This document shows, piece after piece, positions 1,437-30,024 of a stretch of 64,000 nucleotides of DNA. The translations under genes were made by a program, and so were the position numbers. The stretch's first letter is position 1. Every line of letters starts with the position of its first letter. The notes below the pieces were generated by a model. It was given only the letters and a program-made list of their open reading frames with translations, ran no database searches and was not told where the DNA came from. Source of the DNA: Lytechinus pictus (lineage: Eukaryota); contig NC_087251.1 of the NCBI RefSeq assembly GCF_037042905.1, forward strand, positions 46,936,001 through 47,000,000, read 5' to 3'.

Positions 1437-1465
1437 ATGGAGGAGAGAGATACCCCACTGGACGA
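1437..1465 (+). CDS. SPRED: SPRED exon 1 (MEERDTPLD + GA, phase 2)
   Basis: aagATGG start context followed by donor GA|gtaagt. Phase 2 joins exon 2 (GA+G = Glu). The short acidic N-terminus resembles vertebrate SPRED exon 1. Confidence 0.8.
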
Positions 1466-2109
1466 GTAAGTGTTTTTGATAAAATTTTGTTAGAAATCTC
1501 CGTTAGGCCCCGAATGATACATTGGACTCCTGTGTGCATGGTGTGTACGGTATGTGTGTGTGGAAACTGGAAGGTATTGATAGGACAGCTCAGCTTCGAT
1601 TCGGGGCCCTGAGTGGGGTGAAACACGAGAATGCCCGATCATAACACACCGCAAAGAAATTATTTAAAAAGTGAGATTGCAATTGTAGTTTTCAGTGACA
1701 TTATTCTATATTTAAATAAAACAAATTTTACTGAGCTTTTGTTTTGTCTCATGGCGTATCAATAAAATTTGACGGAGAATGACCAGTGTTTATTGTAGTT
1801 GTACTGTAGGCCTACATGATTTTTTTTTCTAATGACTGAGACTGAGTGATGGACGATCATCATGTTCAATCCGGTAGACATAGTCAGAGGCGCATGCATA
1901 TTTTGCATTACCATTGGTGCTGATAACATTACATACCTCTGCATTGTTGCCACTGACTATGGGTATGGCTTGGCCATTGGACACCGACTGCCAGTCTTTG
2001 ACTAACATTAGATTTTACTTTTCTACATATTTAAACAGAAATAGATGTCGACCCCATAATTTACACTGAACTGACGTGACAGAAACTGTGATGTGTGAAG
2101 TATACTATA

Positions 2110-3271
2110 CTATATAGCCAGGGGCCAGTTATCAAAATCAAAATGCAGTGTTACGGGTAATAGTTACGGGTGTACCCCAGGGTACCAAACTTGGTCCCAT
2201 TTTATTTGTTTTAATGATAAATGGTGGCATGGTGCCTGTACTTTGTCATACTTTAAATATGTAGATGACTTAACCATGGTAGAGTGTAGAATGAAAAATC
2301 AAGCCTCACAAATACAAACTGAAATTTAATTACTCGAATCATAGACTTCTCGAAATGATATGGAACTCAATGCATCAAAATGTTCTACAATATCAATTTC
2401 ATTTTCAAAACAACCTCTTCAACCGCAAGTGATCTATAACACCCCATTACTATGTGTAACCGCAGTAAAAATCCTAGGAATTACAATTCAGAATGATTTA
2501 AAGTCGAATGCTCATGTATTGTAACCGAAATAATGAAAAAGAGCAATAAAAAGTTATACATGCTAAGAACTTTGAAAGCTTACAATCTACCTGAATGTGA
2601 TTTGTTAACAGTGTATACAGGGTATGTAAGACCAGTCCTGGAGTATTGTGTACCTCTATTCGCTGCTTCTCTTACTTTGAAACAGATAAAAATTATTGAA
2701 ACTGTCCAGAAAAGAGAATGCAAGATAATATTGGGATCCAAGTACATGTATCTATCATATGACATGGCTCTAAACACCTTAATTTTGACATCACTTGAAA
2801 GTCAAAGAGTAAATCTTACCACAGATATCGCTGTAAAGTTACAAATTAATCAATTGTACAAAAACTGGTTACCTCCACTGAAAAACGCTTTCAATTTACG
2901 ACATATGAATACATGTAAATATAAGGAGATTCCATGTAAAACAAAAAGATTTCAGAACAGTGCTCTTTGCTCTTCCAAGTCTGACAAGTTTACAATGTAT
3001 TAAATAAGTACAGTACCATGGTAATAAGTTTGCAATTTATGTAATGAATGTGCAATATTAATATTGTATTATCTATAATAATTTATTTTTATCCATTTTA
3101 ACTCAATTTTTAACTGCACATATGTAATTTTAATTTGTACATGTATATTCATTGTTAATCTTAGTAATTTTGATTATTTTTATATATTGGCATTGTGTAA
3201 ACATGTACAATTCAGTCTGTGACTGCCAATCATGTTTTTTTTGCAATAAACCTAAATTGAATTGAATTGAA
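2110..3271 (+). mobile_element. 5'-truncated, degenerate L2/CR1-group LINE (RT to 3' end)
   Basis: GVPQGTKLGPILF at 2169, YVDD at 2258 and YxGYVRPVLEYC in ORF 2533-3003, spread over three frames with stops. Ends in AATAAA plus an (ATTGA)n tail. Confidence 0.9.
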
Positions 3272-4362
3272 ATGGTGTTTATATAATTAAGCTTACACTG
3301 TAACATACCAATTATCTAATAAAAATGTTTCATAATAATAATAATACTACTATTATTATTATTAAATAAGAAGGGGAAAATGTTTTTTGTATTACTTAAA
3401 ATGTTATTTCAAACATAAATTCGGGTCTACGTGTAGATTGCTGTATATTTTTGTTTATTCATACCGTGAATATACATGTACCTTAAGGCACCACACTTCT
3501 ACACATACATGTAGATGGATATCATTATTAGTGGGTAGGGTTTGGGGGCTTTTAAGCACATTAATAACCCAATTTTGATAGTCTTTTTCTGTTAAAGGGG
3601 TACTTAAGACATAATTATTTGAATAGATTAGAATAAACAAAACACTGAAATTTGATCAAAATTGGACAAGGAATATGTCAAGAATATGACATTGTAAAGA
3701 TTTGCATGTTTTCATGAAACAGTTCTGTCTTGTCTTGTCTTTCAGGTAATGCCCACAATCATTATATTGATTATTATGGCTTACGAACGTCAAGATTGAC
3801 TCGACCTGTAATTTTGCCGGGACTGGCAATTAACTGTCAATTAAGGGGATAAGGAATTTATACAGTATTCTCAATACACGTATGTTGTATTTGTTTTTAT
3901 TTTTTATATTGTTTGCCATGAAAGTACTTCGTGCAGTTCTTCCAAGGCCAAGTTTTCATCAATAAACAATTTTATTTCAATAATTAGATAAAATTACAAG
4001 AAAGAAAGAAAAAAAAAGTTGCTCGTGCTAGGCAGGCCTACATGTATTTTATTTTGTGTTCAGTTTCAATAACAGTAATGTGCAATTGTGTATGCATACA
4101 TATGACTAAAAGTGAGTATGCAAACTACATGTAGCTACAATGTACAATTACCGGTATTCCTTTCGCTTTTGTCAGAAATTTCAAATATTTTCAACTTGAA
4201 CCCCCCCCCCTTTGATTGCATTGTAAATTATGGTTTGATTGCTCTTGATATATACTCTGAATCTACATAGAGACCTTCAAACCTACAAGAACTTTAGTAT
4301 TTATCATTTTCATGAAAAAAAGATTCAGACTAAATTGTGAACATGTGCCATCAGTGTTTCCC

Positions 4363-4973
4363 TTAAAGGACAAGTCCACCCCAACAAAAAATTGGTTGGA
4401 ATAAAAAGAGAAAAATCCAACAAGCATAACACTGAAAATTTCATCAAAATCGGATGTAAAATAAGAAAGTTATGACATTTTAAAGTTTCGCTTAATTTCA
4501 CAAAACAGTTATATGCACATTCTGGTTGGTATGCAAATGAGGAGACTGATGACGTCATCCACTCACTATTTCTTTTGTATTTTATCATATAAAATATGAA
4601 ATATTCTAATTTTCTCCTCATTGTCAAGTGAAACAGTGATTAATTCCTCGCTGAACATGTGGAATTAGCATTGCTTAATACTATATGATTCAGTCAAGTC
4701 GGTCCCTGTGGTCAAATCTATACAAAATGAAAAATTGTATAATTCAAACAATAAAAAACAAAAGAAATAGTGAGTGATGGACATCATCGACTAACTCATT
4801 TGCATGTCACTGAGTTGTGCATATCACTGTTTTGTGAAAAATAAGCGAAACTTTAAAATGCCATAACTTTCTTATTTTACATCCGATTTTGATGAAATTT
4901 TCAGTGTTTTGCTAGTTTGATTTTTCTCTATTTATTCAAATCAACATTTTTCTGGGGTGGACTTGACCTTTAA
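4363..4973. mobile_element. Kolobok-like MITE copy 1 (TTAA-flanked, long imperfect TIRs)
   Basis: TTAA-AGGACAAGTCCACCCC ... GGGGTGGACTTGACCT-TTAA with arms of about 200 bp. Same family as 42316 and 43277. TTAA TSD with AG..CT termini fits Kolobok rather than piggyBac. Confidence 0.85.
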
Positions 4974-5130
4974 GCATTCTGCCTTTGTAAGGCATACAAC
5001 ATCAATTTGTGAAAATATGCTGAACTTATTAAAGTATCACAATGTTTTTTTTTAAGTTATCACCATACAAGTTTGATCATTCAGTTTTATGTTAATTGGT
5101 TTGTTTTTGGAGTTAAACTTGGTCATTAAC

Positions 5131-5347
5131 TTGATTGATTGGTGGGGATTTTTTTAACCTGATTGCTAAGAAAGCATGAATGCTTGTAAGCAAGCAACCA
5201 GAGGACCGATGGCTTAAGGTCCTCTCCGAAGGACCTGGTAATGAGGATTAATGCCTTACCAAAGGGCACTAGCGCACCAAGTGTGAATCGAACCCGGGTC
5301 ACCAGAATACGAATCCCCCGCTCTACCGACTGAGATATCGCGCCTCC
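5131..5347 (-). mobile_element. tRNA-derived SINE
   Basis: Minus strand reads GGAGGCGCGATATCTCAGTCGGTAGAGC (A box) ... GGGTTCGATTC (B box), then a non-tRNA body and a short (AATC)n tail. Confidence 0.85.
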
Positions 5348-6212
5348 TCATATATACTATGGATACTGGATAGTATTTTTTATGTTACAGGGCCCAGATA
5401 GATTTGCATTTTTTGAATTAGTTAACAGTATAGGCCTATAAACATGTATATTATATGCTTGATGATAGCAATAAAGTGCTTGATACATCATTAGGATTAA
5501 GGGGGGTTTGTTTAAACACTGTACAGATATGTAAACATGTAAATGCCTTGGTCATCGGATTCTGGCTTGCCAGCAGGCATTATACATGTACACATTCATG
5601 TATTACACTTTCTTGCGGACTACTGTATTCCAGTAGTAATATACTACTGTATATTGGCTTTTGATCCTATGGGTTACCCTATGTTTAGAACCTCTTGTAG
5701 GTTTTGATATTTTCTTACAGAATAATTCCAGTTTGTTATTGGGATATCAATGTCCAACACAATGATATGAAACAAAAACATGTTTTTAGTGGATGTATTT
5801 TGCAAAATTGCAATTTTTCATGAAAATTAAGATGAGATCCCACCCTAATTAAAACTGTGATTTAGAAAAAAAAAATGATATAATGAAACTGCTTCACAAG
5901 CATGGAATCCGAATGGGTTGCAAATTTCAGAATTAAGTTTTGTCTACACTGTACATACATGTATAAGGCTTTCCCAAATTTATGCAATCACTGAACATTT
6001 TTTTTGTTTTTGTTTTAAGAGAGAGATGGTGCTACATGTACATATCTTAAAAAGGTAAAAAATCACCAAGTATAAAATGAGTAGGAAAAAGAAGATTCAA
6101 TGGTCACTATACACTACAGTGTCTACACTTTGTTCAGTTTGGAACTTAGAACGTACTCCAATAATATATATGTACCATCTTACTTAATGATAATCACATC
6201 ATTGAACCTTTA

Positions 6213-6870
6213 CAGAGACTCCAACTCTCCCGCTTTCGGTGGGAGATCTTCCGCCGAAAGCCCACTTTCGCAAAATCTCCCATTCTCCCGCTCGAGATTT
6301 AATATCTCCCACCCAGGCCCTGTGTCTCCCGCTTAAGATGTGTTTTCTCCTGCTTAAAATTACCGGTATCTTTCTCAGGTCCTCCTATGGCCTATTTGTG
6401 TGATTTGATTCATTGAAGTGTTAATTACTAAGTACCATCCTAAGGCGTACAAACCCCCCCCCCAAAAAAAAATTACGACCAAGAAAAAAGAAAAGGAAAG
6501 AGAGAAGGGTGAAATATGATATCATTTTTGTAATATGATGTCAAAATCTATCACCAAGTTGGATTTTTAAAGTAAAAGTGTTGAATTTTTTGCTCGCTCG
6601 CAACTTTTTATTAATTTTACATGATACGCCATATCGAGCCCCCTCAAAATTTTTAGCTCATTACGCCACTGGTGCCATCACGTATTGAAAAATGAGCCTG
6701 AGAGAGCATCTAGAACCCTAGAGCTTCCTGGGCCCTTTTAGCAAGACGTGGACCTTGGCCGCAAGCTCGTGATGTGCGCTTCACGCACATCAAGTTGGAG
6801 TCTCCAGTTTGCTAGGGGATCCAGGCGGGAGAATCTCCAGATCAGTAGGTTCTTGGGGTTGGAGTCTCTG
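6213..6870. mobile_element. Non-autonomous TIR element with a nested fragment of another MITE
   Basis: 13-bp perfect TIR CAGAGACTCCAAC / GTTGGAGTCTCTG. Internal segment of about 6440-6672 ends in TACGCCACTG, the end of a different element. No TSD seen. Confidence 0.65.
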
Positions 6871-7769
6871 TGTACTGTTAGAAATATGGGCTAAGAAGTT
6901 GTCAAAACATTTATGGTAGTACATTTTTCCAATGGACAGTCTGATGTCAAATATAATTTTTAAAAGAAAATTGCAGACTACAGTTCTGATTTGATATCAT
7001 CCACACTTAAACAGTTTTATGACTACATGTAGGAATAGGAAATATATGTATAGTGTCCATGTACAAGATAATATAGATTGTTACAGTGACAGGCCATTTT
7101 TTTTGGGGGGGTGCCAAAGTTTTGAGACTTCAAAGGTCCTACCAAAACTACAAAGGCTTATTCTGTAACCTTTATTTTCTGTTAAGACAAAAAAGGTCCT
7201 GAATCATAGTCAGTGTGCACTAGATGTCGAGTTTTTATCCATCTAATTGCAATGTGAGTTTGTGCAGTAGTGTTTACAAGTTAAGTTACAATTACTGTGC
7301 TGCAGTTTTGCTTGGAATCCTGCTCGGTACATGTACAATGCAGCATGGACCTACTACATGATTGCAGTGACTGACTCTACCTACATGTACAACTACATGT
7401 ATACATGTACACAGTGCACAATACAATCCAGTACTGCATTGACGATCTGACTGCCTGCCTGGTTCACTGACTTTCCAGCGTGACACACAGCCTGTGTGCT
7501 TGCTGGGTAATAACACAGAACATTGATATTTGATAAGCGGGTTGCAATGTGGAAGTTTTCCTGCTGATGTTGAGAATGCAGATGGAGATGCGACTGCAGC
7601 GGAAGGAATTGATATTGCTTGCTCTGAAGGAATCTGTAAGCTATCACTGTGGGATACCCCCTGCTTTGTAGACAGAAGGAGTTCGAGTTACACTCACACA
7701 GTGCTGTGTATTGCTAGAGTACTGTTACATACATGCTACATGTACATACAAGTATTTTGCACTGTAAAA

Positions 7770-7909
7770 TACATTGCAAATGTATTGTTAGTGTTGTTTC
7801 AGATGAATCATATTTATTAATTATGTTAGCAAGCAGGATTACATTGCAAATGTACTATTGTTAGTGTTGTTTCAGATGAATCATGTTTATTAATTATGAT
7901 TGCGAGCAG
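7770..7909 (+). repeat. About 70-bp tandem duplication
   Basis: tacattgcaaatgta..ttgttagtgttgtttcagatgaatcat.tttattaattatg..gc.agcagg occurs twice, head to tail. Confidence 0.85.
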
Positions 7910-8242
7910 GGAAGAAATCCATTATTTTTAGCATTGAGATGCCCTTTCTCATGAAATTAATGTACATATGATACAGATTGACTTTACTTTTGACGTTATG
8001 CTTTACATGTAATGTGCATATACATACACTGTACAATGTACATATAAGTGTATCTCTGGGTCTTTATTCTTTGGTGTTCACGAACATAACAAAATTGGCA
8101 TACCGATACCGGTACATACATGTACATGTAGTTATTTGTTTGTGTTAAACACTCACGTTATTGAATTTGTCTGTTGTACCCCTAGAAATGTTCTACATGT
8201 ATGCCTGCATGATAGTTAATAGTACAGTCATGAAGTGATATA

Positions 8243-8912
8243 TTTTCATGCCTTTGTCAGTTGTCACCAAACATGTACATTTTATTGTAGGCATTGTGTT
8301 TTGGGGCTGTTTGCCCCGTTTTCATTCTTGAGATAACTAAAGAACTGGACATACTTTACTTAGTTAAAGTACAGTTTACATTTGTACAGTTACATAGTTC
8401 ATGTATGCATACATGTATGGAAGGAACAATAATCTCGCAGATTTTGGGGTCATGAGGTCAAAGGTCACAGGTCATTACAATGTACATGTATTGTATATCC
8501 TGTCCGCCTAATAACTGGAGAACTGTAAAAGTAATAAACTTCAAAGTCGTTTGATTTACATGCATATTGATTGGACAATGATGTGATTAGATTTCAGAGC
8601 CACAGGGTCAAAGGTCACAGAGGTTTATATCCCTGTACATTATATCTGAAAATATTTTGCTATAATACATGTAATTGAGGAGCTGTTTGAGGGTTCAGCT
8701 TCGGGCTTTGCTCATGTACTTGTGTGCATGTGAGAGTGGCATTGATCTGTATTTTAGATGTTAGGGGTATAAGCTGAAGGTCACAGAGTTTATTTGAAAA
8801 TATTAAGTCAGGCGTGTCTACATGTACACGTACATGTGTATTCTTGATTTGGCAATTTCAGAGGCATGCATTGTAAATTGTCACTGTGCAGTCAAGAATC
8901 CATCTAGATTTT
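8243..8912 (+). mobile_element. Degenerate Helentron-associated (HINE/DINE-like) element
   Basis: TTTT-ATGCC start, repeated AGGTCAAAGGTCAC motifs and a CTAG-plus-T-run end. Same architecture as 53915-54390. Confidence 0.5.
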
Positions 8913-10299
8913 TTAAAGTGGGCCGAGTCAAAATGTTTAACCACCATTTGAATGACCGCTAGAAGCATAGTATTGACTGCAATGGGGGGGGGGGGGTAAA
9001 ACATTTTACAAAAGTTGTTAAAAACTCACATGAAATGCCCATCTGACTTTCATTAAAAAGTAATTATTAAAAATATTCAAGAAAATTATAATTTTCCTGC
9101 TTTTTTCTTGACAGTTGATTGGTTTCTGGAATTTCCCTTGATGTTGGACTATTTACAGTCAGTGTATTAATGATAACAATTTGGTGAAAAATTGCCAGTT
9201 TTACAGGCTGCTTGAAGATAAGGGTTAAAAAGAAAATGATTTGATATGGAGTCAATCTGAGTCATTCATGTAGGGTATGATGGGTAATGTTATTTTTCAA
9301 AAGGTCAGTGACCTGCTACCTACAGTATGATCCTTTTTATTTTGTTGTTGTTGCCCTCTTCAAGCACAACCTGTCAAAGCTTATTACAGTGTATAAAAGT
9401 GGAGGGATTTTGCAAATCTTGACCATGTACATGTACAGTTTGTACTTGTATGTTTTCTTTTGTAATATCAGGTTAAGTCTTGATGTATTAAAAAGGCACT
9501 TTACCGAATACCGATAGTCTATGGTGCATCTTCAGCAGAAATCCTGCTACATGTAATGTACAGTATGCGCAGTATGAAGGTACATGTTCATGTACAGTAC
9601 TTTGTTTGTGTCAAGACTCTTTTCAAAGCGACTTTCCTGCACTCTCTGTTGTTTTGCCATGATGAAATGTGAGGATTACATGTAATGAAAATCTGCGCAC
9701 AGGATTCCAGAGTAAAAATGTGGCCCTGACTTGTTTACATGTATGGCATGGTAATTATATAATATTGAATGGCTAAGAATTGGAATACCAGAAATATTCC
9801 AAGAGTTTTGGGCAATATTCCGTGAATCGCAGATGAGTGGAATATTGGCCCTAACAAGTGGAATATTTCTGGTATTCCATGAAATAAAGCTATTCAATAT
9901 AATTATTATCATCTTTCCCCCCCAAAAAAAAAAATAAAATAAAAAGAGGGAGAACTTTGATTGAACTTGTCAAGCCATCTCTTACCACGTACATGTACGG
10001 CATCATCACTTCATAACATCAACTTTGATCGTTGACATGCGACTCACATGTATTTCATTATGACGTTACTAAGCTCTGATACTGCACGGGTGATTGATGC
10101 ACACCAAAATACGCGTTTTGATGCATCGCTAAAACGCTCTATATAGATGATAATTAAATTTATTGAATAAACATGCGAATGTAATATTAAAATGGCGTTT
10201 TCCATGAATAGTTTCAGTGTGACTTAATGTCATGTTCTTCATTCCCCAATTCATAACTTACAGTTAACTGATATTTTTTAAACTTATTTTCTCGTACAG

Positions 10300-10465
10300 G
10301 AACTCCTGCCTGACCAAAGTCCGCGCTCAGGTAATGACGCGGGAAGATGGCGGGTGGGTTCCAGTTGGTGGTGGAGGGGTCAGTATTGTGGGAATCTACA
10401 AGCTGACCAAAGAAGACTGCAGAGTGGAACACGTTGTCGTAGGAACAACAATGGAAGACAACACA
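10300..10465 (+). CDS. SPRED: SPRED exon 2, EVH1 domain N-half (NSCLTKVRAQVMTREDGGWVPVGGGGVSIVGIYKL...EDNT)
   Basis: Acceptor ttttctcgtacag, donor ACA|gtaagt. The VRAxVMTRxDxxGW motif is diagnostic of the SPRED EVH1 domain. Not in the ORF track because it lacks its own long ATG ORF. Confidence 0.93.
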
Positions 10466-10867
10466 GTAAGTATTGTTCATAATCAAATTTTCTAAGAACA
10501 CAAATTACACATCGTATCCCCCACTGTACTCTGCTGTAATTATACATGTACCACTTACTTGTAAATACCTTCAGCAAATTACATGTACATGTATGTAGTT
10601 CTATAATAAGATCATAATCTAGATTACATTTAATACCAATTTAATACATGTAGTATTCAAATTGTTAGCCAATACATATGTTGCTTAATGCAGTCCATCT
10701 AGCTCCCTAATTTTTCTTGTACTATGCAGTTTGCCTATTGCTCAAATGGCTCGCTGCATTTTCAAAAAAAAAAATAGTGTTCTTTATGTTGACCTACCGG
10801 TACTTCATTTTCAATTATCCATGATTTAAAAAAACATGAATTAAACAACTCATTTTCATTTGACCAT

Positions 10868-11372
10868 TTAAAGAGGAAGTTCACCCTGAAGTTAAGTTAG
10901 TTTAAAAAGAAGGCAAATTTGAGGAAAAATATTGTTAAAGGTTTGATGAAAATCCATCAAAGATCACAAGAGTTATGATGTTTTACAGTTTCACATTTGC
11001 AACGTCATTCGCAAGTAGCTTTCCTATATCATGTAAATTGCCTAAACTCCATTTGTTTTCAATTGAATATGATGAATACAAATATTTATCTTATAGTAGG
11101 GGGATATGAAATATCTGATGATATACAATGTACATGTACAATACAGTATCCATTCTTTGATTTATGAGAAAATGGTATTTTGGGGGAAAGTTTATCACAC
11201 AGCATGGAGGAGTTACTGCTCGTCTGTGATGTCACAAAATCAAAACTTAAAAAGATTATAACTCTGTTATTCTTTGACAGATGTTCTTATAGATTTTACC
11301 AATATTTTTTCTCTGAGTTTTCAACTTTTATTATAATTATCAGGGTGAACTACATGCATGTACTTCCCTTGA
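10868..11372. mobile_element. Older Kolobok-like MITE
   Basis: TTAAAGAGGAAGTTCACCCTGA ... TCAGGGTGAACT[acatgcatgtact]TCCCTT. The right TIR is interrupted by a short insertion. Confidence 0.6.
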
Positions 11373-12683
11373 AGTGTGTTCAGTGTGTTTGGGTGACTGA
11401 ACCTTGCTCTCCCACAGTCTAGCTATTTTTCTTGTTTTACTTTAAGAAGATGAAAATGGTGCAGTCATTCATTGCATAAATAACAGTGGTGGAAAAGGTC
11501 AGAATAATACTATATAAAAAAATGTCCTTCAACCCTTGATGTCTGCACACTTTAGACTAGACAGGCCTGACCTTTCAAGAAATGGGTGTACATTAGAACA
11601 ACATAGTACTGTACTTGTACCTATAGGCATATTATAGCTTTAGAAAATCACCTTTTCTCTACTACATGTACATGTACATGTACATGTACAAATTGCCTGT
11701 TGCCACTGTATATACATAAATGTAGATAATTTTGTGACATGGTGAATGATTTAATATTTCATTTGCAATACAACTTTTTCCCCAGTAATTGCATTGCATA
11801 CATGTACAAATCCACACACAGTATGTGTACATGTACACGGTAGATTACAGTAGTGCAGTGATTGTTACAAACTGATGAGATCAAAAGTCCACCTAATGTA
11901 AACACAGCTACATCCAGGTTGTGTTTGCACAAAGATTATTAATGTATCTAGGCAGGAAGTTGGGTACTCAGTGTAAACCATTAAATTTTTCAAATAACTA
12001 AAGTAAACTTCATATCTGTACTTGAGTGGAGATAGCAGAACAAAGAAGAATTCTGCTGTGATTGATTTTAAGGGCAATGATTGATCGTCAGACATAATGC
12101 ATGTTTTTTTTTAATATTAATCATATTATTTCTTCATTCAACAATTTCATGTATGTAGAAATGACATTTGAATGGCCTTGTACAGATCATGTAGTGTTAG
12201 CAGGATTTTTTTTATTATTCCTGGTTCCTATTGAAAATTGAAATTATCCCTTGGAGTCGGAGCAGTAATTGAATTGTCCACTACAAAATATCAAGCAGTT
12301 TCAACCAATGGCAATATGATGGATAGTCTCCAGTACTGTATGTCTCCAGAACAATATGCACATTCATGTACAGAAGAAGTGCTTGCGGTACGCATCTTCT
12401 GTACTTTACATGCATGTACATGTACCAACAGTGTACTGTACATACCTCATGATGCATCTACGGTCTACCAATTACCGTTAAGAGCGTTACATGTATTTGT
12501 TAATACTGTTACATGTACATGTTCTTGAGGTCAGACTTATTTAATAAAATATATTGATTTATTGAAACCAAATATGCCAAATTATTCATAGTATGGGGAA
12601 GAGAGTACTAAGATTTGACTCGCTATTTTTGAAAAATTCTTACATTTACAATGCTGTTCAATTTCTTTTTGTGTGAAATACAG

Positions 12684-12855
12684 AGGGTGCTTGAATTCAA
12701 TTTACGGAAAGGTGTTCAATACTACCGAGGCAGTCATCTCTTTCACCATTGGAGGACTCCAGATGAAAAGAAATGTGGTCTAACCTTCTATGGCCCGGCT
12801 GATGCCAGGGCCTTTGAAAGAGGGTTTGGGCGTGCAGTTTCAGAGTTGCAAGAAG
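12684..12855 (+). CDS. SPRED: SPRED exon 3, EVH1 domain C-half (RVLEFNLRKG...FHHWRTPDEKKCGLTFYGPADARAFERG...ELQE)
   Basis: Acceptor aaatacag, donor G|gtaagg. The FHHW..KKxGLTFxxPADARAFxRG motif matches SPRED EVH1. Phases 0 to 1. Confidence 0.95.
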
Positions 12856-15800
12856 GTAAGGACAAGATTACAGTTCATCAAATTTTGCAGTTATTATTAT
12901 TTGCATAATTTTGAGGAAAAATCCACCCATGAAGGTGTAATCAGATTGCCCAATAAAAATAAACTTTCATGTAAAATCATTACAATCATTATTTCACATC
13001 ATCCATATGTCTTTGTTGGACAGACACCTTCATGTAAACTGGAATACTGAACATAACACTGGAAATGTCAGACTTAAAAGATGGTCTTTAAATGCTGGAA
13101 TGGGATGTTATCAAGAGCTACATGTTCATGCATACACATGTTTCTGTACATGCATTAATTATGCACTTACAGCCAGTGGAAAGTTTTAGACACACTCTGA
13201 GTATTTCAGGATGTACAGCAGTATTGCATAGTCATTTTGTCATCCTGCCCAGCGTGGCAGTCAATTTACAATTACGCATTCCCTGACCTAATCACTGAAT
13301 CCCTTTGGAAGGAAGTGTCAATTATTGCTGACGATCATTTGAAAGGATGGTATTCATTTGGCTACTTTAGTTTCAGTACATGTACTAGTGACGACAATTT
13401 TCCATTCTTTTGACAATAGTTGCCAGTGTATGGGTATTTGATAATCTTTACTCCAGTCATTTGTACTGTATGATGGATTTTTTTTTTTAGATTGAGGTTT
13501 TTTTTTAAAGAAAGTAGAATAAGAAAAAAAAAGAACTGATATCAGTGCTTGGGCATGTATTTTTTGTTTGTTTAGATCTTGGTTGCTCACTTTCATGCTT
13601 TGTATTGTCCCAGTCCTCTCATCAGGAACTTGGATCTGACAGAAGGTTCAGTTTTGGGTGATGTGGGAGTCGATGTCTTCCGAAAAGTAATTAAAGTAGA
13701 AAAATAGTTGATTTAGATTTATATAGTACAAGTTTAGGAACTCCAAGACTCTAGTGAATGATGTCAGCCGACCACTCTGGGATTATCTTCTCCCTTGCCA
13801 ATTTCCACTTCCTAAATTTGAGGCCAGACTGAGGCATATCATCCCCTCATTGCCAGAGCATTTCCTGCACTTTTACAAACCATCCTGTAGATCTTGTCAT
13901 GTTGCTGCTGCAGACCTCACTTTTTTTCCCTGCCAATTTGGCTGACTGACTGTACTAGTGTGGTGCATACATGTACATGCCATAGCTGAGCTCTCTCTTC
14001 TCCCTTTCTCTAATGGGGTGCAGGAGTTGACTCAATTCTCAAGAGAGGAATTATTTAATCAACAAGAGTTTGCACTCAAGGCCTTATACATGCACAGGTT
14101 TAACTGTGTATGTTGAATTTACATCGAACACTTGTGGTTATTCTGGAGAAGTTCAAAAGAATTACAATTATTTTTTTTTTAAATAAAAAGTCTGATATGT
14201 CATGCTTTCAATATTTGATGATCATGAATGATATGGCATAAATATTTTATTCAGTTTTATTCAGAGTTTTAAAACCAGTAACAGATTACAGGTACACAGT
14301 GTAATACCAAAATATCAATTCTTATTCCTGGTAGTTGTTTTTATTCCTCCCCCTCAAATAAACTACATGTACATTGCACTCTGTGGGAGTTCTGTCATCC
14401 AACTGCTTGTGGCTGACGTTAGCCTAGTTGATGCATACTTTTTTTTTTCTTGTGTTGTTCTCGGGGGCTTTTTTTGTAGTCTACAGTACATGTGCATATT
14501 TCATTATAGTATAATAAGTAATAACCACCTCTACATAGTACATACCCTACTTCATATAGGCCTACACATACACTGCTCGCTTTTTATACATATGTCTGGG
14601 TGTGCAGTCTACCACAGTAGAAGTTTTGTACCCTCTTCATGTAACAAAGAACAGGAAGCACTGTGGGTTGAACTGTTAAGCTGGCCTTTTGTAATGAATT
14701 CAATACAGGGCTACTGGCATTCTTAAAAGAAATTGGTTTGCCAAATCACTCCAGAGGAAATTCACACAAAACCTGCCTTGGCTGAAAGCACTTGTGGTAC
14801 CCACATTGTGCGCTGTCTTTTGTAAATTATTGAAGCCATCATCGAGGGTGATTCGCTCCAGTTGTTTTTAGATTGTATGGGATTTTGAGGTAGTATTCAG
14901 GGTGTGTAGTGCTTCCATATGTTAATCACTTTAGCTTTTCGTGACAGATATCAAGAGGAAGCCTTCTGTTATAAACAGGAAAGCATGACTGGTTAAGAGC
15001 TATTTAAGCATTAATAAACGGAGAGGGGGGGGGGAAGAAAGAGGAGGAAGAGAACAGACCAGGGAAGAACTGAAATGGCTAGTAATGATTAGAAGAGCTT
15101 TGGGTGGAGAATGATATGACTTGGTAGAAAGGGAGAGTACTGGAACGAAAAGAGGAACATCATGGATTACATACAGGCCTAAATGTATAAGAACATGTAA
15201 TTAAAAAAAGGTTAGGGCCTACATGTATTCCTCTACAAACATATATAGGCCTACTGGTATTCCTCTACATGTAGGGATATTTGTACCTCTTCCAGGAAAA
15301 AGTTTAAAAATTAAAGATGCATAGATACACATGTACATGTACATGTTGCCAGCTTTCTTGGGAAGTAATTTGCTGACACCCAATCTTGGATTACATGTAT
15401 GCTCTTCACTTCAGTACACCTCAGCATTGGGCACTGTATGAGGGAAAGGGGGGGGGGGGGGGGCTACTATATGAGCGAATGTTTCTGTGAGTTTGTCATA
15501 AAACCTACCTAGATTATTACTTCAGCTTTTCAGGTGCCTACAATTTTTTTATAAAGTTGATATATATAAAAAAGAATTCTGAAAAGGGTGTTTTGCATTG
15601 GCATTTTTCATGTGGCTTATTCCTGCATTTTCATACAAACATGTAAATATAGACTACATGGAGGCCCTATCATGAATGAAGGCCTGACATTGGCCTACAA
15701 GCCCTACATGTACATCTACAGAGCTTTAAGGATTCCGTGTGATAAGGTTTTCACAAAGTCATTAATTACCTTTAATAAATAGGGCCCTTACATGGGTCCC

Positions 15801-16883
15801 TACATAGGGTCCTTACCGTGCTCAGAGAGCATTGAGCATGCATAGAGTCATGATCTTTGTTTTGAATGAGAGCAAGAAAAACTTTGTGCAGACATCTGAT
15901 GAAACATTAAGTGTCTCAAACAAGAGACAGTTTGTATACCATGTCACTAGCTGCATGTGTGATGTGGAAGGACATTCCTTTCACATTTGTGAACCTAGTA
16001 GAAGGTCGTACATGTAGGCTGACAGACAAGCAGTTTACTTGTTCTTGAGTGGTATGTTTTAGGAATTGACCTGCTTTCTACATGCAGTCCATTTGCTCCA
16101 TAAAGCTTCCAGAAGGAATATTATCTTGAGCTTCGAAGGAGTTTGTACAGTGCTTTAAAGCGGGCATTTGTATTAACCACATGCATACAGTACAGGCACT
16201 CGCTGTGCATGTGTACCACGGACATACCCGCACACATTGTAGATGTGGCGTGGTCACTGGGCACACACAAGCAACACACACAGGTGAATACTGAACAGGA
16301 TTGGTAAGCTCCTCAAACGCTCAGTGCATGCCTGCTGTGTAATGCCTGTACATGTAGTACAGTGGGTCTACTTTTTTGGAAACACCTTTAATTTTTCTTC
16401 ATGAAATCTGGATATCGATGTGCCTCCATGTAACTTTCGATAATTGTATTAAAAGGATGCTTCAAACATTTAAGGCATATCGGTTTATTAAAAATAAATA
16501 GGCATATATAAGTTTTAATGGCGAGCGTCCTGAGGGAGGATGATGATGTAGGTTCTTATTCATACAGCATAGGAAATAGCCAAGGGAGCGTTGCCCCTAT
16601 TTTAGCCCCCTAAGAAATATCCACTTAAGTTCATTCTCTGGGGCATTTTTTTTTCTAATCGCCCCAAATCTACTATAATTGCACAAATACATGTAGGCCT
16701 ACATGTAGTAGGCTACTGTACAATTAAAAACATAATGATTCCTATCTTCTCAATCCCTTCCAAAAATACAGTGTACCATACAAAATCAACAATTACTATT
16801 AATATTTGCAGACATACAACATGTACATGTAGCCTAAATACACCCTGATGTCAAACAAACCATGTTGATGCTGACAGTCTAGT

Positions 16884-17344
16884 CCGGGGTGGGGGGGGGG
16901 GGCACTCAAATTATTTTTTGATGGGCGGTGTGCTTCACGAAACCCTGAAATGGGGGTCTAGGAAACTGACTACAAGGGTAAGATACAGGGTCTTGAGATC
17001 TAAATATATACTGGGTGGTGTGAAAAACAGGGTCTACAGAAGGGGTATCGCGGTATTAGTACGGTGCACGCTAGCGCTGTTTTATATATGGGCACTCGCG
17101 GTGCATGGAGCTGAGGGTGTTGTGAAGCCGTGCGTACGGCTCTTGCATGCGGTGCTCACGCTGGACAATTTTGGCAGGGCAAGGGAACTGAGATGTTTCG
17201 TAACGGGTCTTGCGGGCGGGGAGGGGTGGCTTCTGAACGGAAATTTTGTCATTCGGAGTATCTAGAGAACTAAATTAGGTCTGAAAAAGGGGGTCATCAA
17301 AGCAGCACGTGCCCGTTCCACCGATATATTTATGAGTGCCCCCC
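16884..17344. mobile_element. GC-rich non-autonomous element with (G)n-CACTC / GAGTG-(C)n ends
   Basis: Termini resemble those of 45762-46293. The right end is truncated and no TSD is seen. Confidence 0.55.
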
Positions 17345-20300
17345 TACATGTACCTACATGTATAGTATAGGAAGTGTTGTCACAATAAATGCCAACGAAA
17401 CCAGCCAAGAAAACTTGAGAAGAGAGCATTACAGGATGCACTGGGCCAACTTGGGTCATAGGTCAAATACAAAGATTGTCAAAGGCTTCCAGATCACTGC
17501 TGGGGTCAGGATTGTTATGCCAGAGAGCACAGCGATCAGTCTTTATAGTTTATGGATGTAGCCTACAATGTAGAGTCAGGGGAAAAGGGGGAAAATCTCG
17601 CGGATTTCCACCTAAAATGCAATTGAGAGTCAGATATGGTAAAAGTATTTCTTTTGATCAGTACTTCAATTAAATGTAGGCCTACTTTTTTATTCTTTGT
17701 TAATCCTCATTTTTTTAGTATTCTCATAGTGTAAAATTATCATTTTCCCCACTTAAGTTTGGAAGATATGATGGTGACAGGTACATGTACACAGTACTTT
17801 GTACATAAAAGGTCTTATAGTTATATATTGTGTAGGTTTACAATGTATAGGCCTGTACTTATTTTTTTGCTTTTGAAAAGAAACTTTGGAATAAAGATGA
17901 ATACAACTTTTATTCAAGTTGATATTCTAACTTTAAAGTTATAAAACTGTTGAAAGAGTGATAGAAACTCAGTCCTTATATACAATGTAAATTGTTTCCC
18001 TGGCTAAGCTGCACACCTGGCCATGCATGAATCTTGGATGAAATCTATAAATATCCTTCCACTTTAATTGTCCCATACCCAATCCCACCCCATTGTGCTC
18101 CACTAGATCGCTCCAAGCTCTGAATGTTGTATAAACCTTGCATTGAGAATCAAAAGGGGCGGGTTGCGCTGTGCCACTGTGTTTCAATAGTGGTATAATG
18201 GGCCTCTCACCCAGAATTGTGCTTTCTGCTCCGCTTTATATGTCTGTCTGAAAGTAAACTCTGTTAAAGTTCCATTATGTGAAATGGTGTGGACTGTCAT
18301 AATGTCATTTCAACATTCCAATCTTTAAACATGTTTATTTGTTTCATCCTGTCCTGTGTCCATTGCCTTTATTTGTCCATTTCTTCTGTGTTCTGCTCTT
18401 ACATGAAATAGGCCTCTGGTACACAAAATGCTGTGTTGCAGTGTGGATATTCTTCTGCTTTATAAAGTAATTTTGGGGATGCTTTATTCCTGAAGCCCTG
18501 CACTTAATGACTTTCAAGACGTAGAAATGCTGTATTAGAATTTTCGGAATGTGAAAATATTCAACAAGCTCAAGAGAATATGATGTAATCTCGATGTAGT
18601 TTTGTCTCATTCTGTCACAAGAGAAAACTCCTGTCACTCAGTAGAAAGAGGTACTTTGTAATTACTGTCAAGTATTATCAAGCTAAATCAAATCTAACAA
18701 CAGTACATAATCATGAAGAAAAAACACATAAAATTGTTTCTCTTTCTTGGACCAAATCTTTATTAACTCCTTGTATTTCAAGGATTTTTTAAAATTGAAT
18801 TCCCTTTCTTTTGATGTCTTTTATTTTCTGAGAGTGTACAGAGTAAATACATGCAATTATTTTTTTTCTTCAAAAATTGTTATTATTTTGTGAATGTTAC
18901 ATGTACAGTTTTTTATTGGAAAAAACATTGAAATTTTAGCCTATGATACTTGAAAACATCGTCATTCTATTATTTTGTCCTTGTATATTTGTCACTCAAT
19001 TCTAATTTGATTTTTTTTTAAATGTTACTCAAGATACATGTAAACTTTACTAAAGATGAAAAAAGACAAATTCAGTCAAATGTTTTCAAAATATGATGTC
19101 CACGGCAACTACTATAAATTCTTTGAATTTCCATTTAAAATTTTCTTATCTGATGAGAATACCCAAATATCTGTTTTGAATTAACAATAACATTTGTATT
19201 TTTTTCCCTTCATATTTTTGTTGATCTTGACTTGGATGATTTTATGCTTGTAACATTCCCTTCAAATTTCTATTCAGACAAACCCATGCTGAATGTGCTT
19301 TCAGTAGCAAGCATGCGGTGATAGTTGGTTAATTCAAGGCTTAAAATAATATGTTTGCAAGATGATGAGAGGATTTTGGGGCTGGCAAGCAAGGGCAGGC
19401 CGTAATGGTAATTGTGTTAATCTACTTGTAAGTCAATCAAAGCAGGGGGCTGCTTCTGTCGCAATGCAAGTTGACTGGGGGGGAAGTAAGTCGGAGATCA
19501 CTGGCTTTTAGCCAAGGCTCACAAATTAGATGCCCAAATTGATTTTGGATATATTCCTCTGCTTCCCAATCAAACCTTGGGCAGGACCTTCCTGCCGCAT
19601 GGCAAATTTGCTCGGAGATCCAGAGACGTGTATGCTGCTTGTTGGGGAAAAAAAAAACGCTCTCGCATACATGAATATTATTGCCCTCATTTTGGAAATT
19701 ACATGTGCATTTAGGCATTTGAAATTTATTATGTTAAGGAGCACTGTGTATGTATCTGTAATGCATTGATATGCATTACATGCAGTGATACACCTACATG
19801 TACATGTATACACGCACTTTAGTTTCTACAATTACAGGTATTCATTGAAAATAATATACCATGTCATGTAGCAACAAAACAAAACTACAAAAATTCAAGA
19901 TAATAATTATTATTATTACTATATATACATTTATTACATCTTAATACATGTATGTTTTATCATCTCCCATCATGTATATTCAGTGTAAATCAATTTCATT
20001 TGCTCAGCTGTTATAACAAGATATACATGTATGTAAGATAGTATGAAAATGTTTGAAATGTGTATATTTACATGATACATGCAGACTAACATGTACTTTT
20101 AATGCCCCATACATGTACTTTATATCAATATGATTCATATACAGTCCATCTGTACATATCTGAAAAATACTACATTAAAAAAATGTATCCCTGTATGGGC
20201 AGTTGTTTTACATTACACAAGGCAAAATCAGATGATTAATATTTACTATGAAATACATTATGTCTTTGCATTATCTCAATAAATTAAAGATAATGAATCT

Positions 20301-22533
20301 TGATCGAAATCATGTGGTATGTATGAAGTATGTCTGCCACAATAAAATGCACTAAAGCCACTCTGATAGATTTTAACGCAAAAACTTTTGACACTGTGTA
20401 TACAGAGGCATGCATGCTGTGTAATAAAGTAATGGAGTGTATAACAGGAGCTGACAACTCATCACTTTATAAAGCCATATTTTCCTTCTTGACTGAGCCT
20501 GAAAGGGAAGAGGGGGCTTGACATAGTTCTAGACTGCTGATTTTCATCTCAGTGACTGCTTATGTCAAGATTTTATATAACTAGTGCACATCTCTCTAAA
20601 GCTAAATTACATGAAGAAAAACAAGTGCTTCTTTTCCATTTTATTTTATCATTTGAATGATGAATAGGCCCTGTCCGATATTAAAATGCCCCATATTATG
20701 TTTATAAATTATTTTTGGGGTTTGATTGCAATACGATTTAGTGTATGATATGACTGTGAAACATGAATTGTGGACAACTAGTTCTTTACATGTTATTTAC
20801 ATGTAGGCCTAGATTTACATACATGTAGTTTAAATTGTGGGGAATATCCAAAATTTTAAAATATTAGTTGCAGTTCACGTGCACAATAATTTGGTATCTT
20901 TGCCATCATGAGAGTCGTTAATTATGAATATACATGTAGGTATACAATCAAGCATATTTTGCTTTTCTCAAAACCCTTTCACTTCTGTTACTGTTCTGAA
21001 TTTGTCATTGAAGAATTCGGTTTACTGGTACTGTATGCATACTGTATGGTAATTTGTACATGTAGTACCATGGAACATTTCCCTACTACATGTTGTACAT
21101 GTAGTATTGTGCACTGTAAAGGGCTGTAATGTACATTCTACATTTTATGTTCAAGTCCATGTACCTGTGTAGCTCTGCAATATGACATTGAGAGACAGAG
21201 GAGAAGATGAGATAGACTTCCAAGCCATGGAAAGAGTAAACCCTCCTCTTGTCTCTCACTCTCTTCTTCCCATGATCATCTGACAGTTCAGACATATTTG
21301 TTTAGGTCAGAATCGGAAGTTATGAATACTGTGGGGCCATTATCATGGCGGTGTTTTCTTTGCTCCCCGGAGGATATCCCATAAATCAGTTGAACTTTCA
21401 TCGTCATCATCATCATCTGAGGGATCGCTTTCTCCCTTCTCCCGGAATGCCAATATCATGGTCATGGGTGTTCTATCTGTATATATATCCGGTGATGCTC
21501 TCTGCCTGGTACATACATGTACATGTACTGTATCACAAATACACACACAGACACACACACACACAGAGTACAGATGGAGAATACATGTACAAGTAGAGCA
21601 AACCTTGACATGCTTATGACATTCATCAGTGAGTGGATTGTGGTTTATATACTCTTCTAAATGCACACACGGGAAGACAGGTGGAGTGTTTCTTGAGTGG
21701 CAAAAGGAAGTGACGTAGTTGGATACATATATGTATCCGTGTTACCTGTTTCAGTCACACTTTACAGTTGCTTGTACTGCTTCATAGAAGTCTGGTCATT
21801 TTCCAGGATTTTTTTTTTTCTAAAAGAGATTTCATAGAAATAAAGAAGTGATGTATTCCGTTTGTCTAAGCAATGTCTGTTTGTAAGACACATTGCAATT
21901 AATTCATGTTTAATATTTTAATCTGATTCCTGTATAAATGTAGGCCTATATGCCATAGATGTTTGATACATGTATATTGAAAATTAACTTAAAATCCTGC
22001 TACTCACATATCAGTTAAATAATACACTTCCTCTGGTTAGGTCCACATGTACACGTAATTTGCATTTCCCAGTATCGATAATTGTTGCCCAACAGAATGC
22101 ATATTGTACAGCAAAGAATTGTTCTAAGAAAAACCACATCTCACCACTTGACCAAGTTAGTGGAAATTCCCTTTTTGAGGTGAACCACAGGAATTGTGTA
22201 ATGATGATTAAACATTAAAACATTCCTTCTTATTATCTTTTAATTATCTATTTATTTTCTTCTTTTTGCAAAAACAAGTACCGGTAATATCAAATTTCAA
22301 TAAAAAGATACACTGTAAGTGCATATGTACTGTATTGACTGCCCTGCTTGCGTAGTGGCAGTTGTACAATAGATATTCTGTAATGTTTTAATATGTTTAA
22401 AGCAAATCATCACACATTCACATGTTAGTTTTTTTCACACAAAAAATGGAATCGCAATTCAGACGCTCATTTAATTCAAAATTCAAACCATTAATCGGTC
22501 ATTATTTATTTTCTCTTTTATTTTTGTGTACAG

Positions 22534-22592
22534 GTTCTTCCAGCGAGTCATCATATGGTCTGGATGACAGCGATGAGGATGTTCCTGTACCT
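22534..22592 (+). CDS. SPRED: SPRED exon 4, Ser/acidic linker (GSSSESSYGLDDSDEDVPVP)
   Basis: Strong pyrimidine tract plus tacag acceptor, donor CCT|gtaagt. Phase 1 to 0 exactly bridges exons 3 and 5. Confidence 0.85.
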
Positions 22593-23021
22593 GTAAGTAT
22601 TATATCTTGATTATATTGATTTCTAATTACATGCATACATGTATTTTAATATTCAAATTACATAAGGAGCCATGGTTATTAATCAAAATTATTTTATTAA
22701 ATTGAATCTGTTTTGTAGATCAAGTTACCAAAAACATTTTACTCGACAATTCCTGATTATACCGAAAACAAGAGTCAGCCCTGCCAAGAGGAGTCCCTGA
22801 AATGAATCAAATAGTCCAGGAAATGAAAATAATGGTAGCCCTTTGAATTTTTAAAAAATATTAATTTCCAGCCCCCCACCCCCAAAAAATATTATTTTTC
22901 ATTTTTTTCATGTACTAAATATATTGTCCCGTGATGTTTGTATTGTTTTTACGTTTTGTATTTTTTATTAAGTTAAAAAAAAGTAATAAATTTTCTACTT
23001 TTCTCTACATTTAATTTTCAG

Positions 23022-23870
23022 CGTGTTGTGGATCCACTGCTGTCGCGTGAATGTGTTTTCCATGATTATCAGAACACCCCAAGTACATGTGTGGCACCGA
23101 AAGATGGAGGAGGTAAACTACTCAAGGACATCCTTACACAGCCAGCCAATAAGGACTACACATGTATATCAGGATATACGTATCCTCATAACAATCAGGG
23201 ACACCTACATATGGTGCACTATGTGACACGCAAAAGGGATGATAGGAGACCGCTGCACAACATGAAATATGCACACGAAGGATCATGGGTAAAAACGGCC
23301 ACAGAGTGGCATCCGATAAGAAAGGACTTATCGCAGGATCACTTCAAAGACTCCTATGTGAAGATAGTAAAAAAGCCACAAAGTATTCATGAATACAGCT
23401 ACCCGACAATACCACCCACGCGCGAGATGGACGACCTCAAGAAGCCACCTACCTTCCCCAAAGTGGTGACCACTCAACCCCCACCATCACCGCCCAAGAA
23501 ACTCATACAGAAAATGAACAAATACACGGAGCCCTCACAGTGTCTGCACTGCAGTCAATACTTTGACCCGGAGAGCAACCGGAAAGGGGACTGTCCAGAA
23601 GCTCCTGACGAAGTCTCGTACTGTATCAATTTCTGTTCATGTCTATGTGCGGCACAGTGTATGTTATATCATTGTATGTCAAACTCAGAGGGGGATTTCC
23701 CATCTCCTTGTTCTTGCGACACCGGCGAGAGCCAGTTTTGTCGCAGATGGTTCGGGCTTGCTGCGTTATCGTTCTTCGTGCCCTGCTTATGGTGCTATCC
23801 TCCTCTCAAATGCTGCCACTGGCTTGGCACAAAGTGCGGTTGCTGCGGCGGCAGACACAAAGCAAAGTGA
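23022..23870 (+). CDS. SPRED: SPRED exon 5, linker plus C-terminal cysteine-rich Sprouty (SPR) domain
   Basis: Acceptor ttaattttcag. Contains CLHC..FDPESNRKGDCPEAPD, CMLYHCMSNSEGDF, PCSC, RWFGLAALSFFVPCLWCYPPL and ends CGCCGGRHKAK*. Spliced CDS is 1275 nt = 424 aa plus stop. Confidence 0.96.
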   Translation, partial: RVVDPLLSRECVFHDYQNTPSTCVAPKDGGGKLLKDILTQPANKDYTCISGYTYPHNNQGHLHMVHYVTRKRDDRRPLHNMKYAHEGSWVKTATEWHPIRKDLSQDHFKDSYVKIVKKPQSIHEYSYPTIPPTREMDDLKKPPTFPKVVTTQPPPSPPKKLIQKMNKYTEPSQCLHCSQYFDPESNRKGDCPEAPDEVSYCINFCSCLCAAQCMLYHCMSNSEGDFPSPCSCDTGESQFCRRWFGLAALSFFVPCLWCYPPLKCCHWLGTKCGCCGGRHKAK

Positions 23871-26771: not shown

Positions 26772-26803
<32 letters not shown>

Positions 26804-28170
26804 AAGAGGAGGGGGGGGGTGGGGTTGAAAAATGAGAGTGAAACTGATTATTTGTTGCTAAGGCTGCTTTTCTTATTGTATTCCTATATTTTTGGCTGGA
26901 AGAGAGTTAAGTGTTCCAAAATTGTGAACATGCACACTATAACAGTCAAAAAGAGTTCTATTAACAGTTCCATTTTAGTCATGTTCACCACATTAAAATG
27001 TATTTTATTGTTATCAATGTGTTCCATAAGATTGGTTCTTATCTCAAGTTCATGTCAAATAACGACAGTAAACTTTACATTTATCTTTCATGAAATATAT
27101 TTGTAGCCCTTTTTAAAACCTGCAGTTTAGATAATTTATCTCATGGAAATGCAAATTTTTTTAACATGGCCATGAATATCAGCAATTATAGTTGCAAGTT
27201 TTATGAATGATAAAAAAAAAACAAATCATAAGTTTCAATGGCCAATGAGTACACACAGGATGGCTTTTATATATTTTTCTTTTTATATATAAAAAGAAAT
27301 AATGTTTTGTATATGTTCAGTCTGTTTTTTTTAAAGTTTCCTGTAAACTATTTTAACAGTTAATGATATATAAATGTATTTCATTCAATGAAATCATGCT
27401 ATGATTGCATATTTGTCAAAACCTTATATGTTACTGCGATTCAATGACATGTTTATGATATGAATAATGTGTTGAAAAACCATTCCCTGCCTCAAGTGAT
27501 TGTTGTTTCTAGTTCTAGATGCTGACAAAACTTATTTATCATCAAGCTGCTAGCACGGAAGTGACTACAGCTACATGTAGTTAAACAACAAAAAAGTTTA
27601 ATCACACAATTCCGGTCTCTGAACAGTTTTCAGAAGACAACTTTTCTGTCCACCGTATTGTTCCTCAGTTTTTTAAGTATGGCTTATATTTGCATTAATC
27701 TGCTCATGAGAGAAGTTAACACATGTTGTGATTCTGTTCTCACCAAAATCAACAAAAGAAGATTATGGAAAAAAGAAAAAAAAATGACGTCATCTTATTC
27801 ACAATCTGTGTACAAGTATTTGTACTGATGTTATTTAATAAACTCATGCATGGAAAGGGAATTGAAGCTATTTTCTCTTTTGTTCTTATTTGGTTTGTGA
27901 GGTGCGTATGGGTTGTACTGACTTGTGCACAATATCATCTGCTGAGATCCATTATTATATGATTTTAAATGCAACATTTATTACCCAAGACAATTTGTCA
28001 AAGTCTCTTCTGATCATATACAACTATTTCAACACTGAATAGGTAACACCCTTGTTTCACTTAAATTTACATATTAATACATAGTGTTCGTGCTATCTCT
28101 GCAGATGACATGTGTAAAGTTTTGATTTGAAGATTTGAAGTTTAAATAAAGCCTGTAAACACAGAAAGTG
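23871..28170 (+). other. Putative long SPRED 3' UTR
   Basis: T/AT-rich sequence after the stop with few interspersed repeats. AATAAA at 28145-28150 is one of several candidate poly(A) signals, so the end point is uncertain. Confidence 0.35.
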
Positions 28171-28791: not shown

Positions 28792-28937
28792 GGACCCATT
28801 GCAGAGAGAGTTGCAATCAATCGAAACTCTAAAAATCATGCGCAACTTGATTTTAAACCAATCAACAGCGCGCATTTGGGACTTGCGATTGATATTTTTG
28901 GCTTGCGTTTAAATGCAACTCTTTCTGCAACAGACCC
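28792..28937. mobile_element. Small palindromic MITE with CAG 3-bp TSD (Harbinger-like)
   Basis: CAG|GGACCCATTGCAGAGAGAGTTGCA ... TGCAACTCTTTCTGCAACAGACCC|CAG. Confidence 0.6.
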
Positions 28938-29868: not shown

Positions 29869-30024
29869 TCTATCTATCTATCTCTTTTTTTTATCTCTAT
29901 CTATATATCTATCTACTAGTATCTATCTATCTATTTATCTACTAGTATCTATCTATCTATCTATCTATCTATCTACTAGTATCTATCTATCTATCTATCT
30001 ACTAGTATATATCTATCTATCTAT
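29869..30024 (+). repeat. (CTAT)n tetranucleotide microsatellite
   Basis: Directly visible; periodically interrupted by ACTAGT. Confidence 0.9.

Follow-up and report, generated by a model that had tools for sequence, protein, structure and literature searches.

Tc1-like transposons duplicate the TA dinucleotide at which they insert, and on excision a staggered cut leaves their terminal CA and TG on the two flanks, both of which are filled by end joining. The word taCATGta has been named as a footprint of Tc1 (PMC3520976), the footprint of Sleeping Beauty is cag/ctg (PMC5224488), and the pogo element Passer prefers AAGTACTT, which has a GTAC core, and highly expressed genes (PMC9976928). Here we analyse a window of 64,000 bp from the sea urchin Lytechinus pictus (G000:C7:46,936,001-47,000,000 of an 811.7-Mb animal assembly), in which the introns of a SPRED gene are crowded with TACATGTA, that is, TA-CATG-TA. 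We conclude that these words are very probably excision footprints, fixed in the germ line, of TA-targeting cut-and-paste transposons of the Tc1/mariner/pogo type, excision being the step that we infer.

The gene was identified as SPRED by a WH1/EVH1 exon, whose Pfam match lies just under the cut-off, together with a Sprouty domain, and its five coding exons, spanning 1437-23870, were predicted from splice signals and reading frame (Table 1). From its likeness we take exon 2 to encode the first half of the EVH1 domain. Between positions 1800 and 22400 the word TACATGTA occurs 75 times (3.64 per kb), whereas all 43.4 kb of the window outside this interval contain 8 copies (binomial P 2e-28) and the 40 kb upstream of the window contain 3. 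Introns 1 to 4 hold 3.28, 6.31, 3.31 and 2.34 copies per kb, respectively. The edges of this zone are sharp: it begins just after exon 1, the region of which is a CpG-rich promoter with no TACATGTA in 1-1799, and it ends at the last intron, no copy being present in exons 2-5 or in 23871-27000, the 3 kb past the stop. A preliminary description, made from the letters of the window alone, had reported that the word recurs dozens of times, that it forms runs such as TA(CATGTA)4 and that it fills spurious open reading frames with TC, HV and MY dipeptides; the count agrees, the run lies where it was placed (Table 1), and YMY, TC and HV are visible in the frames.

Markov models of orders 1-5 trained on 74 kb of neighbouring DNA predicted 0.45-0.83 copies in these 20.6 kb. 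A 5th-order model trained on the window itself gave a small excess (166 against 90, both strands) because TACATGTA trains its own background, and this test was dropped as self-contaminated in favour of training on neighbouring DNA. Genome-wide, 224,046 copies (0.276 per kb) were counted where 18,000-33,000 would be expected, so the excess over a Markov background that the preliminary description had proposed to look for is large both locally and across the assembly. The reversed word, which overlaps the scar vocabulary itself, has 85,448 copies. SPRED introns are 13-fold denser in TACATGTA than the genome average, and the genome-wide distribution is patchy, with 845 triples within 30 bp where chance would give about 16, some of these triples lying in tandem repeats. 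Inside the zone no fine-scale clustering of the word was detected over 7-100 bp (P 0.41, 0.32), same-site stacking alone being in excess. One-mismatch variants of TACATGTA, of which the zone holds 75 against 15 expected, are probably older scars. In total the excess scar words amount to about 820 bp, or 3.9% of the zone, which gives substance to the earlier proposal that a measurable share of this intronic DNA is scar, provided that excision has been deduced correctly.

The word arises by insertion at a single TA, and not by substitution, since paralogous alignments of a satellite, a long interspersed nuclear element (LINE) and a miniature inverted-repeat transposable element (MITE) all show +CATGTA at one TA; the refutation by substitution or CpG deamination that had been allowed for in advance thus failed. 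The 60-bp satellite array at 62165-64000, 29 units of which were compared, contains one such insertion (Table 1). More informative is a decayed LINE fragment in SPRED intron 1, which was compared in an alignment with 29 copies from elsewhere in the genome (30 of the 42 matches) and carries private insertions at 2517 (+5), 2743 (+6), 2910 (+6), 2991 (+7), 3009 (+5) and 3138 (+6). All three of its TACATGTA words are +6 insertions at a single TA, and the other insertions are TA-TTG-TA, TA-CAG-TA and TA-CAATG-TA. Tandem duplications, and a +CATG at a non-TA site common to 7 related copies, being left out of the count, TA scars number 6 in 939 bp of the SPRED copy against 2 in 23,131 bp of the 29 others, a 74-fold difference (P 9e-8). 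The substitution level of this LINE is 3.9%, and 6 of its approximately 85 TA sites (7%) are scarred. None of the 42 matches is split by a resident insertion, and cold DNA is therefore mostly without both scars and elements. No template for CATG was found in the flanks of the satellite and LINE insertions.

An abundant MITE has a TATA site at which 184 copies contain 3-14 additional bases and 3,763 contain none. In a hand tally of the first 100 of these 184 insertions, 26 were exactly +CATGTA (14 and 12 at the two TAs), which is 26 of the 36 six-base insertions; 31 contained TACATGTA, 2 TA-CCGG-TA and 1 TA-CTAG-TA, and the next most frequent insertions were ATTA (13) and TATA (8). Other intronic repeats (the MITE at 4362-4974, a tRNA-derived repeat and older MITE pieces) yielded no further scars or had too few homologues compared. 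The MITE at 4362-4974 is palindromic and abundant, with copies at 42798-43804 and in L061 and L063 and at least 3,763 matches genome-wide to one 22-base site. It has TTAA-like ends, and we take it to be Kolobok-like.

Three features are absent from the preliminary description: how sharply the zone is bounded, how much wider the vocabulary is and that unlike words are stacked at a single TA. TA-GGCC-TA, TA-CCGG-TA and TA-CAG-TA occupy the same zone as TACATGTA and are stacked with it at common TA sites. Specifically, TAGGCCTA was found 8 times in the zone and 0 times in the rest of the window (1.4 expected), TACCGGTA 5 and 0 times (0.8 expected), TACAATGTA 8 times and once (0.8 expected), and TACACTGTA 6 times and once (0.3 expected). 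TACAGTA/TACTGTA and TACATA/TATGTA, the recurrence of which had also been noted, are in excess when judged by neighbouring DNA (21 against 4.8 and 42 against 16.3, respectively) and show no excess over window-trained Markov models; they are therefore weaker signals. TACAATA shows no excess in the zone. Overall, CATG rises about 34-fold in the zone and the other words 4- to 14-fold.

With a vocabulary of 19 words, chains of at least two words number 25 in the zone, of at least three words 10 and of four words 5, where independent hits would give 13.6, 1.2 and 0.1. Unlike words are mixed in 23 of the 25 stacks, and slippage therefore cannot produce them. Cold DNA shows no excess of stacks (one of at least three words against 0.15 expected). 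Adjacent doubles number 7 against 3.2 simulated (P 0.048). The stacks leave two readings, namely TA sites that are hot in themselves or scars that improve the sites at which they lie; with its alternation of pyrimidine and purine, a scar may turn its own TA into a better target, and we propose that stacks could form for this reason. On the SPRED sense strand TACAATGTA occurs 8 times and TACATTGTA 0 times (P 0.008, uncorrected), and TACATA 28 times against 14 for TATGTA; this strand bias of asymmetric scars gives a weak hint of a link with transcription.

Table 1 Features of the window (positions counted from its first base)
Feature	Position	Strand	Remarks
SPRED coding exon 1	1437-1465	+	Predicted from ATG, GT donor and frame continuity
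Scar-dense zone (SPRED introns 1-4)	1800-22700		76 TACATGTA
Decayed LINE 3' fragment, SPRED intron 1	2270-3260	+	Six private TA-scar insertions; serves as a clock
Stack of four, TA-CCGG-TA-CA-TA-CATG-TA-CATG-TA	8107-8130		
SPRED exon 2	10300-10465	+	Predicted from splice signals and frame; no Pfam match alone
Stack of four unlike words, TA-CAATG-TA-CATG-TA-CAA-TA-CAG-TA	11124-11148		
Run TA(CATGTA)4	11663-11688		Repeated scarring or slippage
SPRED exon 3	12684-12855	+	WH1/EVH1 second half, PF00568, E 3.7e-4, just under cut-off
Stack TA-CATG-TA-GGCC-TA-CATG-TA	16688-16707		Compound recurs at other dense spots of the genome
SPRED exon 4	22534-22592	+	Predicted from splice signals and frame
SPRED last coding exon	23022-23870	+	Sprouty domain PF05210, E 7e-28
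TA-flanked inverted-repeat element, CA..TG ends	36535-36775		Excision would leave a TACATGTA-type scar
TA-flanked inverted-repeat element, CA..TG ends	51190-51519		Resident in window
TA-flanked element, CC..GG ends	60272-62164		Excision would leave TA-CCGG-TA
TACATGTA formed by +CATGTA at a single TA	62254-62261		In 1 of 29 units of the 60-bp satellite; that unit is 66 bp

Elsewhere in the window, an (ACT)n microsatellite of about 245 copies (30559-31343) is the source of long poly-L, poly-Y and poly-T frames, and a serine-rich open frame of 288 residues with a repeated SEAR/SETR motif lies at 54446-55312. The CC..GG element is filled with tandem repeats of 17-118 bp and directly adjoins the 60-bp satellite.

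According to the excision mechanism, a single TA would become TA-CATG-TA through insertion of an element, its staggered excision and the fill-in of both ends. CC..GG ends with the same staggered cut and fill-in would yield TA-CCGG-TA, and elements with other ends or staggers may have left the minor words GGCC, CCGG, CAG/CTG, CAATG and CACTG. The comparison with the ends of TA-targeting elements that had been suggested beforehand came out in agreement: CA..TG and CC..GG ends were found, and the inserted cores CATG and CCGG are the terminal bases of TA-flanked elements here (Tc1 and the window elements). The earlier remark that no element remains is true of the individual scarred sites and not of the genome, in which a young Tc1 family and families of pogo type are resident. 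The element at 6211-6872 was rejected as a source, its end having only 15 genome copies and its right boundary being imperfect.

The young Tc1 family is 1.9 kb long and of the DD34E type, with copies more than 99% identical, ends TA-CAC..GTG-TA and at least 150 transposase matches. It often forms a fold-back dimer in head-to-head arrangement, which has two transposase frames and a 5' junction deleted to a varying extent (for example, G000:C6:20053360-20055436), and about 28 divergent pairs lying 0.8-1.9 kb apart were counted by eye among 150 matches (for example, in L031, L036, L049, L050 and L059). The genome also holds 76 pogo-type DDE_1 matches. At the hot scars (n = 69 sites) C or G is favoured beside the TA (CTAC 2.7x, GTAC 2.1x, CTAG 2.8x), a preference partly produced by stacking itself, and the CTAC and GTAC contexts are in line with the preferences of Passer. 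One pogo transposase, at L077:1109-2605 (G000:C20:3307558-3309054), contains introns and has a confirmed DDE_1 domain; three copies, 98-100% identical, have open frames. Its C-terminal tail, retained in lineages at 45-47% identity, bears a Cys-His cluster with C4HC3-like spacing that gave no Pfam and no PDB match; the best Atlas match is an ALFIN-like PHD finger (0.88), which is a lead only. The ends of this element lie outside the 3.4 kb examined, so the family is a candidate and not the culprit, and we regard an involvement of PHD-like pogo elements in the scars as tentative and rather doubtful.

Scar events are tens of times denser in the SPRED transcription unit than in flanking DNA. We slightly favour the view that this hot zone reflects insertion steered by the host chromatin state of some transcribed genes, where full-length insertions would later have been excised or purged and neutral scars alone would persist. 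Cold LINE copies are without resident elements, and a bias at excision only would need stored elements; a higher insertion rate is therefore the simplest reading. Selection, we infer, cannot raise a neutral scar above its rate of origin. A more speculative and rather doubtful extension is that chromatin-reading pogo transposases, with their PHD-like tail, few resident copies and open frames, cycle repeatedly through select germ-line-active genes, old scars drawing new insertions. If so, scarring per TA site might be about as frequent there as substitution per base, judging by the 7% and 3.9% of the intron-1 LINE, a suggestion to be held just as loosely.

Several observations weigh against these proposals. 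No site was seen in its empty, occupied and scarred states, the passage from element to scar was not caught anywhere, and the scars have not been traced to any one family. The young Tc1 family is poorly supported as source of the hot zone on the basis of its flanks, which hold 10 TACATGTA in 43 kb (30 loci), and of its target context, with T beside the TA in 38 of 44 Tc1 ends against 43 of 138 hot half-sites (31%, P 6e-9); cold scars lean toward its context (ATAT 2.4x) yet differ from it (P 4e-4). Clean +6 scars dominate here, whereas the usual scar of Tc1 in C. elegans is +4 (78%; PMC13148408) and clean footprints made up 8 of 94 excisions in rice (PMC4423477). The LINE-derived rate estimate comes from one LINE copy, the scar-bearing MITE copies may share descent, the single insertion at a non-TA site of the MITE against 184 at the TATA site is a raw count whose empty-copy denominator is unmeasured, and the 19 words of the stack vocabulary were picked after looking. 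As for gene activity, 12 DEAD-box helicase loci (11 genes) hold 15 TACATGTA in 39 kb (0.38 per kb), which does not support the idea that all housekeeping gene bodies are hot. Together with the upstream 40 kb, which seemingly holds genes and has the 3 words mentioned above, they show that being an active gene body is not by itself the rule. Upstream of the window, at distances of approximately 28 kb and 36-37 kb (L063-L064), there are frames on the minus strand that resemble host-gene exons and lie in DNA without TACATGTA; one of these frames is presumably TPR-like.

Regarding the words themselves, an origin from TACGCGTA or TACACGTA by CpG deamination, the gene body being methylated, would fit the low CpG observed/expected ratio of the zone (0.18-0.52 per 2 kb). 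It is effectively excluded because the satellite, LINE and MITE alignments show length gains and because CpG is equally low in the DNA downstream and in DEAD-box loci that lack the words; precursor counts, moreover, were 0, 3 and 1. The words could instead be selected binding sites for an Irx-type homeodomain or Myb factor, as they have been read in Phytophthora: TACATGTA, cited as the preferred site of Irx, is found in front of 12,070 genes in Phytophthora (PMC3520976), and here the zone is confined to one gene. A selected motif, whether a factor site or a palindrome like HIP1, would be made and kept by substitution in functional DNA, coding DNA included. Since the words occur as whole six-base insertions in MITEs, a satellite and a defunct LINE, with unrelated words alongside, and are lacking from SPRED exons 2-5, we judge this very improbable, and some scars may have been co-opted as factor sites later. 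Addition of CATGTA at TA by a process other than transposition, such as slippage, templated or snap-back repair or an unknown enzyme, could account, through slippage, for the growth of pure runs such as TA(CATGTA)4 and for the surplus of adjacent doubles, and no element was caught leaving. Such a process is hard to reconcile with first insertions that have no CATG nearby, with minor words that match the ends of other window elements and with the mixing in most stacks, and we give it little credence.

Concerning the hot zone, a different possibility is that insertion is even and that repair is biased, end joining scarring these transcription units while homologous repair elsewhere restores the element or the empty site. 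In C. elegans the choice of repair pathway alters the apparent excision of Tc1 about 1000-fold (PMC13148408). The joint rise of words of several end types points to the host, and the 8:0 ratio of TACAATGTA on the sense strand hints at transcription-linked repair. Set against this, scars and resident elements are both missing from the cold LINE copies, DNA could not accommodate about 6 events per kb in the form of resident elements, and the 34-fold rise of CATG, against 4- to 14-fold for the others, suggests a family-specific part; on balance we think repair bias possible and rather unlikely. That a long-lived donor element close to SPRED made the zone by hopping locally appears improbable. Tc1/mariner elements are known to hop locally, and the dense spots are patchy genome-wide, as the 845 triples attest. 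Hopping predicts gradients and one vocabulary, however, whereas a step and several vocabularies are seen, the zone running from just past exon 1 to the last intron with only 3 words in the 40 kb upstream.

Footprints are generally regarded as infrequent side products of transposition; in this genome they form a large mutational signature of about 200,000 excess copies and about 4% of hot-gene DNA. Each scar records a past insertion, and scars therefore count transposon traffic that is missed by copy-number surveys and make insertion-site bias in the wild germ line testable from assemblies. As a six-base scar keeps the reading frame, it can add protein residues where these are tolerated. Occurrences of TACATGTA in motif discovery, for example in Phytophthora promoters, may be scars or scars later used as binding sites. 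Were the proposed cycling of pogo elements through germ-line-active genes to prove true, a germ-line chromatin state could be read from sequence alone, scar density being its fossil map, and scars would be a main cause of intron growth and of spurious motif finds in genomes of this kind.

Minos, a member of the Tc1 family, also leaves a +6 scar at TA, made of four bases from one end and not of a two-plus-two palindrome. The footprint itself is already known; in a literature consisting mostly of journals outside subscription we found no account of accumulated TA-CATG-TA scars in echinoderms, of their scale (a build-up of about 200,000 excess copies) and patchiness, of gene-bounded dense zones or of stacking. 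Motif-1 of Phytophthora, likewise TACATGTA, is an abundant palindrome in non-coding DNA (PMC3520976, PMC11134190); it was interpreted as a transcription-factor site, and the footprint idea was raised and dismissed over abundance (PMC3520976), which, as this genome illustrates, is no argument against footprints. The rice survey resembles our analysis in treating excision as a genome-shaping force, and differs in that its 94 events were mostly ragged deletions and fillers, neither a fixed word nor dense zones appearing in the part of it drawn on (PMC4423477). Sleeping Beauty, ZB and Passer share TA targets, and their cag/ctg or 0-4 bp footprints match our minor words (PMC5224488, PMC7913693, PMC9976928); the footprints reported there were measured in transfected cells and are not deposits that became fixed in a genome. 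Passer shows a preference for 5' ends and promoters (PMC9976928), whereas the SPRED zone spares the promoter and covers all introns. The closest likeness in word and geometry, with TA duplication and CA and TG contributed by the two ends, is to Tc1 of C. elegans (PMC3520976, PMC13148408). There, taCATGta is described as rare, +4 is the typical somatic scar and germ-line breaks are mostly repaired by homologous recombination (PMC13148408). In the urchin, by contrast, the +6 scar is dominant and inherited; its copies exceed expectation by about 200,000 and form dense zones with sharp boundaries.

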